From: an uncultured Chitinophagaceae bacterium
Lineage (GTDB): Bacteria > Bacteroidota > Bacteroidia > Chitinophagales > Chitinophagaceae
Direction: 5' to 3'
Assembly (NCBI GenBank): GCA_966076165.1
Contig: CBHRAM010000001.1
Span: 1-47,536 of the forward strand
Length of the DNA stretch: 47,536 nt
The position numbers and the translations under genes are program-made. Below the pieces are notes generated by a model. The model saw nothing but the letters and a program-made list of their open reading frames with translations, was not told where the DNA came from and searched no databases. Positions 15,698-18,432 of the stretch are shown one piece after another. Position 1 is the first letter of the stretch. Each line of letters opens with the position of its first letter.

Positions 15698-15739
15698 AAA
15701 GAAGCCACAAACGATTATCTTGTTTGTGGCTTCTTTTTT
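15698..15739 (+). terminator. Intrinsic terminator after GH97
   Basis: AAAGAAGCCACAAAC / GTTTGTGGCTTCTTT plus T run. Confidence 0.8.
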
Positions 15740-15767
15740 GGCATTTGCAAATCTTAGCAAGTTTCGG

Positions 15768-15799
15768 GTTGTGGTTGTTTTTAGGGGTATCTACATTTG
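15768..15799 (+). promoter_or_regulatory. Sigma-70 promoter for ada
   Basis: GTTG-N20-TACATTTG matches the Bacteroidota -33/-7 layout. Confidence 0.55.
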
Positions 15800-15818
15800 T
15801 ATTGTTAAACTGAAAACA

Positions 15819-16658
15819 ATGAATGAACAGGCATATATCAATTATCACCGTATAGCTGAAGCGATCGATTATATCAAAGCTCATTTTAATGAGCAGCCCA
15901 ATCTTGATGAAGTAGCGGAGAAAGTCAATATCAGCCCTTTTCATTTTCAACGCCTGTTTACAGACTGGGCAGGTGTTAGCCCTAAAAAATTTCTGCAATA
16001 CATCAGCGTGGAACATGCAAAAGGAATACTGAAAGAGAAGAAAGCCAGTTTATCGGATGTGGCGTATGAAACCGGTTTATCCGGCACGGGAAGACTGCAT
16101 GATCTGTTTGTAAATATTGAAGGCATGACCCCGGGTGAATTTAAGAACGGAGGAGAAGCACTTGTGATCAATTATAGTTATGCCGAAAGCCCTTTTGGAA
16201 ATATACTCGTTGCTTCTACGCCCAAAGGCATTTGCCATATGGCTTTTGCAGATGATGAAAGAGAAGCTATCAAGGATCTCCATCATCGTTTTCCCAATGC
16301 GGCTTTTAAACAGGTGGTTGACCTGATCCAGCAGAATGCACTGTATATATTTACGCAGGACTGGACAAAACTCAAAGAGATCAAACTGCATTTAAAAGGA
16401 ACGGGCTTTCAGCTAAAAGTCTGGGAAACGCTGCTGAAAGTGCCCATGGGTGGCCTGGCAACTTATGGAGAGATTGCCGCATCTATTGATCAGCCAACTG
16501 CCTCAAGAGCCGTGGGCACGGCTATAGGCGATAACCCGGTGGCTTTTCTGATCCCTTGTCACAGGGTAATTAAATCAACTGGTTCCATCGGCCAGTATCA
16601 TTGGGGAAGCACGCGTAAAACAGCCATCATTGGCTGGGAAGCGGCACATACCCGTTAA
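15819..16658 (+). CDS. ada: Bifunctional AraC-HTH / O6-methylguanine-DNA methyltransferase (Ada-like, no N-terminal Zn domain)
   Basis: SPFHFQRLFTDWAGVSPK HTH; GTGFQLKVW, RAVGTAIGDNP, active site PCHRV. Confidence 0.9.
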   Translation: MNEQAYINYHRIAEAIDYIKAHFNEQPNLDEVAEKVNISPFHFQRLFTDWAGVSPKKFLQYISVEHAKGILKEKKASLSDVAYETGLSGTGRLHDLFVNIEGMTPGEFKNGGEALVINYSYAESPFGNILVASTPKGICHMAFADDEREAIKDLHHRFPNAAFKQVVDLIQQNALYIFTQDWTKLKEIKLHLKGTGFQLKVWETLLKVPMGGLATYGEIAASIDQPTASRAVGTAIGDNPVAFLIPCHRVIKSTGSIGQYHWGSTRKTAIIGWEAAHTR

Positions 16659-16748
16659 CCATCCTCTTATACGATCAATGCAATTTGTTCCGGGTAACCG
16701 GACAGGGAAATTATTGTCTCAATATTTCATCAATATAAAACACAAACA

Positions 16749-17474
16749 ATGAAAACATTTGTCCTCATTCACGGTTCCTGGCATAGTGCATGGAACTGGC
16801 ACAAAGTGGTGCCACTTTTAGAACAGGCCGGGCATACGGCCATTGCCATTGATCTTCCCGGTATGGGAAGAGATAAAACACCCATACAGGATGTAAAAAT
16901 GGAATCAACGGTTCAAAAAATCTGTAAACTGATCGACGGCATTGAAGGAAAAGTGATTCTGGTGGGCCATAGTAAGAACGGGATCATGATCTCACAAGTG
17001 GCAGAATACCGCCCTGATAAAATTGAGAAACTGATCTATCTCGCAGCTTATCTCGTGCCCAATGGCAAAACACAAAGAGAATATTCTGTGCGGGACACCG
17101 GCGGATGGTTAAAATCGTATGTGACTCAACACCCCGAAACGCAATCGCATACTTTACAACCGGCTATTTATAAAGAAGGGCTGTATCATGACTGTGAAGA
17201 TGATATGGCAGCAATGGCACAATATATTTTAAGCAATGAACCTGTTGAATCGGGTATAGCCACCTTACAATTAACGGAAGAGAATTTTGGATCGGTACCC
17301 CGGTATTATATTGAATGCACTGATGACAGAGCGGTAACACCATTTATTCAAAAGGAAATGTATACCGAAACGGTTTGCCGAAAAGTATATAGCCTGCATA
17401 CCAGTCATTCACCATTTTTCAGTAAACCCAAAGAGTTGGTGGATCTGTTTTGTGAGATAGGAGAAGAGGGATAG
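16749..17474 (+). CDS. Alpha/beta hydrolase, methylesterase (SABP2)-like
   Basis: FVLIHGSWH, DLPGMG, GHSKNG nucleophile, TDDRAV Asp, TSHSPF His. Confidence 0.85.
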   Translation: MKTFVLIHGSWHSAWNWHKVVPLLEQAGHTAIAIDLPGMGRDKTPIQDVKMESTVQKICKLIDGIEGKVILVGHSKNGIMISQVAEYRPDKIEKLIYLAAYLVPNGKTQREYSVRDTGGWLKSYVTQHPETQSHTLQPAIYKEGLYHDCEDDMAAMAQYILSNEPVESGIATLQLTEENFGSVPRYYIECTDDRAVTPFIQKEMYTETVCRKVYSLHTSHSPFFSKPKELVDLFCEIGEEG

Positions 17475-17593: not shown

Positions 17594-17630
17594 AAAAAGC
17601 CGCAACTGATGTTTCAGTTGCGGCTTTTTT
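17594..17630. terminator. Bidirectional intrinsic terminator directly after the tRNA-like RNA
   Basis: Perfect 16-bp stem AAAAAGCCGCAACTGA-tgtt-TCAGTTGCGGCTTTTT. Confidence 0.9.
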
Positions 17631-17805
17631 GCTGTAGGGGGAGGGATCGAACCTCCACGAGGCAGTTAGCTGTAGTACAAAGTTCGGTGGTCGACCCCGG
17701 TCACCTGAATATTGCTATTCAAATGGCTCTATGCTACGTTTATCCTGTTATCCTCACCCCCGAGACAAGAGGGCATGTCTGCCAAAAATTTCATCACCCC
17801 ACAGT
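17630..17805 (-). ncRNA. tRNA-like RNA with GUC (Asp) anticodon, 8-bp acceptor stem and a 100-nt structured variable-arm domain
   Basis: Minus strand: CTGTGGGG/CCCTACAG acceptor; ATG/CAT D-stem with GG in the loop; CCCTC-TTGTCTC-GGGGG anticodon arm; GGAGG-TTCGATC-CCTCC T arm; 100-nt insert at 17756-17657 folding into several helices; followed by a terminator. No CCA encoded. Confidence 0.8.
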
Positions 17806-17839: not shown

Positions 17840-17872
17840 CAATATTAGCACATATTCCCCATTTGTTGTAAA
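17840..17872 (-). promoter_or_regulatory. Putative promoter of the tRNA-like RNA
   Basis: TTTA-N21-TAATATTG on the minus strand, one mismatch in each box versus TTTG/TAnnTTTG. Confidence 0.45.
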
Positions 17873-17885
17873 TAATTCAATAAAT

Positions 17886-17927
17886 TATTTGATAATATAG
17901 AAATCGTTCAATATATTTGATAATATA
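17886..17927 (+). promoter_or_regulatory. asnC promoter with a 14-bp direct repeat (candidate AsnC operator)
   Basis: TTTG(17888)-N20-TATATTTG(17912) is a consensus promoter; TATTTGATAATATA occurs at 17886 and 17914. Confidence 0.6.
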
Positions 17928-17955
17928 CTGAAAATTATCTAAAAATCAAACTAAA

Positions 17956-18432
17956 ATGTCCGCTAAATTAAATCTTGACAAATTGGATCTGCAGATCATC
18001 CAGGAAATGATGGAGGATGCTGAGATCTCCTATGCTGATTTAGGCAAGAAACTCTTTGTTTCCGGTGGTACCATCCATGTAAGGATCAAGAAACTGGAAG
18101 AGCTAAAGGTAGTGAAAGGTAAAAAATTATCGGTAGATCTCAAATCTTTGGGATACGACGTGATCGCTTTTATCGGAATCTATCTCGAAAAGAGTTCTAT
18201 GTACGATAGCGTGGCCAAAGACCTGAAACGGATCCCGCAGATCGTTCGGCTTAATTATACCACGGGTAATTACAGCATGTTTGCAGAGATCATTTGTAAA
18301 GACATCCAGCAACTTCGTTTTGTATTGCATGATGAGCTGCAGAAGATCAAAGGGATCGAACGCACAGAAACCTTTATTTCTCTTGAAGAAAGCCTTGTTC
18401 GCAATGTGGTGGTAGCGCCACAGGCGGGATAG
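17956..18432 (+). CDS. asnC: Lrp/AsnC family regulator, AsnC-like
   Basis: LDKLDLQII, VSGGTIHVRIKKL, LGYDVIAFIGI, YTTGNYSMF, TETFISL closely follow E. coli AsnC motifs. Confidence 0.88.
   Translation: MSAKLNLDKLDLQIIQEMMEDAEISYADLGKKLFVSGGTIHVRIKKLEELKVVKGKKLSVDLKSLGYDVIAFIGIYLEKSSMYDSVAKDLKRIPQIVRLNYTTGNYSMFAEIICKDIQQLRFVLHDELQKIKGIERTETFISLEESLVRNVVVAPQAG

Follow-up and report, generated by a model that had tools for sequence, protein, structure and literature searches.

What function might be served by an apparent tRNA with an aspartate anticodon whose variable arm has been expanded into a folded domain of 100 nt, and which is encoded divergently from a gene for an AsnC-type regulator? 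This question is posed by a locus on the minus strand of a 47,536-nucleotide stretch of DNA from an uncultured Chitinophagaceae bacterium (contig CBHRAM010000001.1, positions 1 to 47,536), which was analysed as a whole and is referred to below as the window. The elements of the RNA, in order from its 5' end, are:

17631..17803, minus strand: mature tRNA-like RNA, from U1 to C74, scoring 136 bits with the covariance model
17797..17803, minus strand: 5' strand of the acceptor stem, U1 pairing with A72 (17633)
17775..17794, minus strand: D arm of class II type, with 3 bp, A15, and GG followed by an extra nucleotide, 20a
17757..17773, minus strand: anticodon arm, with the loop U32 U33 G34 U35 C36 U37 C38 (UUGUCUC)
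17657..17756, minus strand: variable-arm domain of 100 nt, with covariation among homologs
17640..17656, minus strand: T arm, with G49-C65 and A51-U63
17639-17633, minus strand: 3' strand of the acceptor stem
17632, minus strand: discriminator G73, a G in 178/178 distinct copies

The first-pass annotation of this locus had listed U8-G9, which follows the acceptor 5' strand, a 3-bp D stem with GG, the anticodon arm, the 100-nt insert and the T arm, and all of these are confirmed in the sequence. It had also proposed an 8+5 geometry like that of tRNA-Sec with a C or A as discriminator, and on both counts comparison with homologs led us to a different conclusion. The base at position -1 varies: among 150 cellular copies it is C in 85, T in 48 and A in 17, and among 28 viral copies T in 16, A in 11 and C in 1. 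It is unable to pair with G73 in 16/149 cellular and 11/28 viral copies, and U1-A72 is found in 149/150 and 26/28 of them, respectively (counts over 150 cellular copies include one mis-parsed copy, L031, which counts over 149 leave out). Based on the variable -1 base, the invariant G73 and an RNA contig that begins at 17803, we read the acceptor-T branch as 7+5 and the discriminator as G73, which is the canonical one for Asp. Several identities were rejected in the process: tRNA-Sec, because the anticodon is GUC rather than UCA and there is no 8/5 branch; tmRNA, in view of U3-A70 in place of G3-U70, an intact anticodon arm and the lack of an ARAGORN or Rfam call; and tRNA-Asn, whose anticodon would be GUU.

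In the core, A15 occurs with U48 in 144/149 cellular copies, in 148/149 copies four bases separate the GG of the D loop from the D stem, and the T-stem pairs G49-C65 and A51-U63 are present in 148/149 and 143/149 cellular copies. A 3-bp D stem, A15-U48, the D loop GG-C-A-G and a single unpaired base 3' of the arm are likewise features of class II tRNA-Leu, and the covariance model scores ordinary tRNAs of 83-88 nt up to 63 bits. As judged from these shared features, in particular the 3-bp D stem and A15 with U48, the core appears to be of the class II, Leu-like type, and class II tRNA-Leu is its likely origin. Unlike tRNA-Leu, the RNA has G73, which is an anti-determinant for LeuRS (PMC9976931), an Asp anticodon, and a several-fold longer arm with conserved internal motifs. 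Charging by SerRS, which G73 and the long arm might bring to mind, is less likely as C72, C11-G24 and G30-C40 are missing. Allo-tRNAs and tRNA-Sec are also long-armed non-canonical tRNAs, and GUC is a common allo-tRNA anticodon (PMC5389517), but they display 8/4, 9/3 and 8/5 branches and varied anticodons, whereas here the branch is 7/5 and GUC is fixed in the comparison. The allo-tRNA branches (8/5, 8/4, 9/3) were rejected on the basis of the variable -1 base and the contig start at U1; the accessible text of PMC5389517 makes no mention of Bacteroidetes.

The single-sequence fold of the RNA is unremarkable (z -1.42, not significant alone), and the case for it therefore rests on its homologs. 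Their arms, which range from 39 to 137 nt in cellular copies, share a layout of a basal helix, a bulge, a short helix, an internal loop of the form RAYAAA/CUAA, a long helix, an optional hairpin and a GG-UNGA-CC hairpin. The basal helices are conserved, the internal loop is present in 141/149 and the distal GG-UNGA-CC hairpin in 115/149 cellular copies. In an alignment of 70 diverse homologs two-sided changes were observed at 31/40 named pairs, and 93.7% of the paired cells can pair, as against 80.3% when shuffled and 46-55% when slid. These observations speak for a folded domain that is conserved, rather than for an intron, as had been surmised earlier; an intron-containing tRNA was rejected because the insert lies in the variable arm, not the anticodon loop, and because a full-length contig exists. 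Two viral loci (L042:500-590 and L069:2039-2129) code for a short version with an arm of 21 nt, called as tRNA-Asp by ARAGORN, which could be either the ancestral or a reduced form. Long variable arms also occur in the 88-nt tRNA-Asn and tRNA-Thr genes of a 288-kb viral contig (L079:2243-2423).

That the RNA is transcribed is seen in metatranscriptome contigs, which pile up on 17630-17803 and fall off at its edges in 7/8 runs, the eighth having two low-depth contigs only. Only some 10% of the query words occur in any of the runs, and no habitat or strain was deduced from them; the contigs derive from relatives, and their depth is unfit for ranking expression. In four runs there are contigs that run into adapter sequence at 17630-17632; one contig, a thin support for the 5' end, begins precisely at 17803 and is flanked there by adapter; and a 185-nt contig covers the entire insert. 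Two contigs from one run have an extra C that might stem from CCA addition, although CCA is encoded in 18/150 genomes; here the genome continues with A after C74, and a CCA end would need enzymatic addition. Splicing of the arm was rejected, as the joints among the contigs vary in size and fit homologs with different arms.

These data bear on whether the RNA, with its complete cloverleaf, GUC and G73, could be an unusual tRNA-Asp that still serves in elongation, or else a precursor from which the arm is cut out. Among 40 covariance-model matches the anticodon is GUC in 38 and C38 is present in 40, but position 37 is U in 32, G in 5 and C in 3, never A, and position 33 is C or G in 8. The T stem, moreover, has pairs predicted to act against EF-Tu, normal tRNA-Asp genes exist, and among the RNA contigs, which drop rare forms, no clean arm-excision joint was found and one spans the arm. 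We accordingly hold an elongator or its precursor to be very improbable; the earlier view that this is no ordinary decoding tRNA is supported by the absence of A at position 37, the variation at position 33 and the pairs of the T stem. U33, which that annotation had pointed out, is not invariant, with U in 32/40 matches, and the suggested role as a ligand of tRNA-guanine transglycosylase is unlikely given C or G in place of U33 in 8/40. The two copies in one genome (G171, L224:1501-1611 and 1723-1832) carry UUC, an anticodon for Glu, together with U1-A72 and G73, through either a switch of identity or drift.

Searches with blastn recovered homologs in 22/24 genomes of the same genus and 5/16 genomes of other families, and a pattern scan of 4/64 parts of the genome collection yielded 121 loci, from which about 2,100 genome stretches are estimated overall. 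The titles of 120/121 loci are Bacteroidota lineages, and the exception has the 5' half only; Chitinophaga pinensis and a Dyadobacter, which are cultured and non-pathogenic, are represented among the carriers. ARAGORN makes no call anywhere within the window, and in Rfam 15 there was no match near the gathering score, E values up to 5 giving terminator-driven chance matches only; nor did any of four loci, whose arms are long, of medium size or 21 nt in length, reach the gathering threshold of an Rfam 15 family. A full-text literature search, most subscription papers and supplements lying outside its scope, returned no description of such an RNA. The checks proposed at the outset, against Rfam and ARAGORN and for covarying homologs in Bacteroidota, thus found no described family, found homologs, and found that the insert covaries: the family is real, conserved, transcribed and uncatalogued.

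Some cells have tandem arrays of 3-5 copies with arms that sometimes differ (L149:2400-3230 of Persicobacter, L114, L131, L167). At a contig end in one genome a copy with a foreign 5' end lies beside a degenerate duplicate (L225:1501-1832, G096), and at L176:296-340 the 5' half of the RNA gives way to unrelated DNA; both are possibly integration sites or assembly artefacts. The pattern used on the genomes, in which the anticodon loop is fixed, detected 47 viral loci, and a rescan with an anticodon-free 3'-end pattern detected 76, with 52 distinct complete copies; in this set the anticodon is GUC in 52/52 and the loop has GUCUC in 51/52. The one phage copy queried against a cultured-phage collection had no match there, and the phage neighbors include terminase, exonuclease, PhoH and HNH genes but no shared partner protein. 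The presence of the RNA on phage contigs, in some cases inside tRNA arrays, and its tandem copies in some cells might point to a decoy against anticodon nucleases or another RNA deployed in phage conflict. Yet it is mostly a single copy next to a metabolic regulator, it tracks GatB and asnC, and with U37 and a variable position 33 it would be a poor mimic of the tRNA-Asp loop; we therefore give such a role very little credence.

We then turned to the gene neighborhood, whose elements in the window are:

17956..18432, plus strand: asnC-type gene for an Lrp/AsnC regulator, divergent from the tRNA-like RNA
17866..17941, minus strand: three palindrome-like sites (at 17941, 17911 and 17880) with a 30-31 bp period, a predicted AsnC operator array
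17840..17872, minus strand: promoter-like boxes, -33-like at 17872-17869 and -7-like at 17847-17840
17594..17629, minus strand: intrinsic terminator with a 16-bp stem, directly 3' of the RNA

The protein product of the asnC-type gene has E. coli AsnC (2CG4) as its best PDB match (E 3.5e-30) and scores 152.5 bits against the NCBIfam AsnC model, under its cut-off of 227. Such a gene is the first or second one upstream of the RNA in 73/91 loci with enough DNA, those without it being mostly from Saprospiraceae; it is the sole broadly conserved neighbor, and the cassette of RNA and asnC recurs in a genome of another class (G160). The neighbor tabulation that had been suggested, with AsnC, Ro60 and RtcB in mind, thus bears out AsnC; the 40 largest neighbor clusters hold neither Ro60 nor RtcB, which, with the lack of an Rfam match, makes a scaffold comparable to Y RNAs unlikely. 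Across 57 intergenic regions, 79 pairs of sites were observed at 30-32 bp spacing as opposed to a mean of 11.5 and a maximum of 23 in shuffled sequences, and a 30-31 bp periodicity has been described for Lrp/AsnC targets (PMC8707732). A relaxed -7-like box is found within 80 nt in 54/57 intergenic regions, a count made without a shuffle control. The boxes in the window resemble those of the Bacteroidota-type promoter. The terminator stands at 17629-17594, right at the 3' end of the RNA as first noted, and probably serves the convergent hydrolase gene too, i.e. is bidirectional; terminator-like stems occur within 60 nt of the RNA in 86/148 cellular copies. Between the RNA and trmB the window has, at 15720-17474, genes for an Ada-like methyltransferase and for an alpha/beta hydrolase; 8 other loci also have trmB downstream of the RNA.

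No diverged version of the RNA was detected beside the asnC-type genes at 20 loci, comprising 16 from RNA-negative genomes, 3 from carriers with asnC elsewhere and 1 second paralog. One AsnA-positive genome without the RNA (G266, L268:1750-2161) has a spacer of 410 bp upstream of its asnC, in which there are hairpin-like stretches rich in G+C and to which the covariance model gave no match. In another genome (G143) asnB is divergent from an asnC-type gene, in the slot elsewhere held by the RNA.

The aspartate-specific and asparagine-specific marks of the RNA are more directly informative as to its partners. The five strong Asp identity determinants, G34, U35, C36, C38 and G73 (PMC9976931), are all present, and AspRS, already named as a potential ligand, is a likely partner. 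Three things had escaped the first-pass annotation: the U1-A72 pair, the signature in the T stem, and the connection that gene content makes with GatCAB and asparagine synthesis. U1-A72 is a determinant for GatCAB, to which the anticodon is irrelevant (PMC1635274, PMC2811023), and an Asp tRNA given U1-A72 and deprived of U20A is amidated nearly like tRNA-Asn (PMC1635274). G49-C65 and A51-U63, the pairs typical of tRNA-Asn, block EF-Tu binding of aspartylated tRNA (PMC1904265). Two marks point the other way: the extra D-loop base 20a, which is retained, is an anti-determinant for GatCAB (PMC1635274) that may or may not act as such in a class II core, and G1-C72, which helps E. coli AspRS (PMC9976931), is lost. 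Compared with elongator tRNA-Asp(GUC), the RNA shares G34, U35, C36, C38, G73 and G2-C71 but differs in U1-A72, the lack of A37, the weak-binding T stem, the giant arm and the 3-bp D stem; the ordinary tRNA-Asp genes of three carrier genomes have G1-C72, A37, G49-U65 and G51-C63.

A T stem that would exclude EF-Tu is also known from the non-proteinogenic tRNA-Gly of staphylococci (PMC1904265; see also PMC7826273), which is likewise kept out of translation but is of normal size and gives glycine to the cell wall, whereas the predicted product here is a free amino acid. By analogy, aspartate or asparagine on the RNA might feed a transferase acting on lipid, cell wall or protein N-termini, and a short-pattern check did find an ordinary tRNA-Asp alongside the RNA in 3/5 carrier genomes. 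However, no transferase recurs among the neighbors, and such a donor function does not predict the links to asnC and GatB or the absence of AsnA and AsnB in carriers; we regard it as improbable.

The gene content of carriers and non-carriers provides a further line of evidence. The genome from which the window derives is 89% complete, and in it we found GatA, GatB, GlnRS, AsnRS and one AspRS but neither AsnA nor AsnB. In this assembly (G000) ARAGORN reported neither a tmRNA nor plain genes for tRNA-Asp and tRNA-Asn, all of them probably unassembled. In a sample of 150 genomes from the class, the RNA was called in 26 by the covariance model on 20 candidates per genome, such that absences may be under-called. 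GatB and AsnRS are present in 26/26 carriers and the RNA in 0/39 GatB-less genomes. E. coli-type AsnB was found in 19/150 genomes and AsnA in 5/150, with no carriers among them, using NF006949 for AsnB since TIGR01536 is too broad (135/150 genomes); longer AsnB-like paralogs detected by TIGR01536 occur in 23/26 carriers. AsnB was absent from 10/10 further carriers checked and equally from five RNA-negative genomes. The 57 genomes with GlnRS are informative because GatCAB is not needed there for Gln: the RNA is in 14/19 of those with GatB and 0/38 of those without. GatB is also present in 16/16 carriers of a phylum-wide sample, which overlaps that of the class, and in the order of the source organism in 13/13 carriers and 0/3 non-carriers. 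An asnC ortholog was found in 32 genomes: every one of the 26 carriers has it, and so do 6 RNA-less genomes, among them 4 with AsnA or AsnB.

Of the five RNA-less genomes with both GlnRS and GatB, four (G218, G252, G281, G308) have a frame of 1,110-1,120 aa in which GatB is fused to AspRS, with a fusion of 1,105 aa. The two fusions inspected (L492:3407-8124 of G218 and L493:3676-8390 of G252) both lie behind a gatA-like gene, with which they would constitute a one-chain transamidosome, and carry the non-discriminating AspRS signature, which is missing from all 25 carrier AspRSs examined (of 26). For this we take H31/G83 to be the discrimination signature, known to be imperfect, for which we found no literature source and which is backed here by alignment to PDB chains labelled as Asp/Asn ligases. 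As a separator of carriers from non-carriers the signature fails, all housekeeping copies being alike, and the fusion genomes also hold a normal AspRS, GlnRS and AsnRS. GatB is no guarantee of the RNA, which is lacking from 85/111 GatB-positive genomes. One GatB-positive genome without the RNA, G261, is flagged as unpublished; it is a single row of the class tallies, and none of the conclusions depends on it by itself. Of the 80 GatB-positive non-carriers in which GlnRS is missing too, 76 encode neither AsnA nor an E. coli-type AsnB and have an AspRS of similar type. These 76 might be auxotrophs, use other enzymes or possess a relaxed AspRS, which would render the RNA unnecessary. As related genomes are not independent, we also counted independent pairs on a FastTree AspRS tree of 98/150 genomes, excluding two fused AspRSs and one 0.5-Mb genome. 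The link between the RNA and asnC is significant (p about 0.002), that with GatB is borderline (5.3 pairs in the same direction, 0 opposite, median p 0.06), and that with the lack of AsnA/B is not significant (3.1 pairs in the same direction, 0 opposite, p 0.25).

Based on the fold, transcription, identity marks, linkage to asnC and gene-content pattern, we propose that the RNA is probably a dedicated off-ribosome carrier for asparagine synthesis by AspRS and GatCAB, the enzymatic steps of which we infer throughout. Its ends would be matured by RNase P and the CCA-adding enzyme, and the housekeeping AspRS would charge it via G34, U35, C36, C38 and G73. The resulting Asp-RNA would be kept off EF-Tu by G49-C65 with A51-U63, and GatCAB would read U1-A72 and amidate it to Asn-RNA. 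The lack of a purine at 37 in most copies, the variable position 33 and the giant arm would prevent Asp codons from being misread by Asn-RNA; in addition, the arm may dock AspRS or GatCAB. Asparagine would then be freed by spontaneous or assisted hydrolysis and become available to AsnRS. Free Asn-tRNA has a half-life of 7 min (PMC1904265), making spontaneous release plausible; such release would favor many copies of the RNA, which the tandem arrays of up to five fit.

The main rival to such a carrier is an RNA that binds AspRS and/or GatCAB under AsnC control, bridging the two, relaxing AspRS towards tRNA-Asn or titrating them, with no turnover of Asp to Asn on the RNA itself. A scaffold or regulator of this kind would account for the same gene-content pattern, and for the conserved arm motifs, the large contig depth on the RNA and the retention of the 20a anti-determinant. 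Against it, the RNA has retained G73 and C74, a fully paired acceptor stem and the pairs that would exclude EF-Tu, features of consequence chiefly for an aminoacylated RNA; we consider the rival a possible but distinctly less probable explanation than the carrier.

The proposed carrier has parallels in two known systems. In E. coli, AsnC activates asnA at low asparagine (PMC8707732), and there too an AsnC-type regulator and periodic operator-like sites adjoin a gene of asparagine supply, as is predicted here; the difference is that the regulated gene is an RNA and not an enzyme. AsnC would turn on the RNA gene at low asparagine, and the task of asnA in E. coli would here fall to the RNA. In the indirect pathway, tRNA-Asn shares U1-A72, G73 and G49-C65/A51-U63 with this RNA, and GatCAB, AsnRS and GlnRS co-occur in genomes without Asn synthetase (PMC1635274, PMC4206432). 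Bacteroidetes figure among the groups with AsnRS, GlnRS and GatCAB but no Asn synthetase in PMC4206432, which proposes tRNA-Asn as the carrier, invoking a possibly non-discriminating AspRS, and in its accessible text mentions no RNA of the present kind. Unlike tRNA-Asn, the RNA has GUC, U37, a class-II-type D arm, an arm of 39-137 nt and an AsnC-linked gene, and is predicted to be non-decoding; with its GUC anticodon a discriminating AspRS would suffice, as against the non-discriminating AspRS of the indirect tRNA-Asn pathway.

Even if this mechanism were to fail, there would still be a widespread, expressed and uncatalogued tRNA-derived family that ARAGORN and Rfam miss. Taking the proposal further, we consider it somewhat better than an even prospect that in many free-living Bacteroidota asparagine synthetase has been replaced by an AsnC-controlled, non-decoding tRNA chimera, working with a discriminating AspRS and GatCAB, whose arm scaffolds the enzymes or blocks the ribosome and which phages carry as an RNA-only auxiliary metabolic gene. 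If true, this would add an RNA-only metabolic gene to those of phages, alter the predicted auxotrophies of genomes among the estimated 2,100 or so stretches, and explain why GatCAB is retained in Bacteroidota that have both AsnRS and GlnRS. It would also constitute a new route of asparagine biosynthesis, in which a tRNA has evolved purely as a reusable metabolic carrier.
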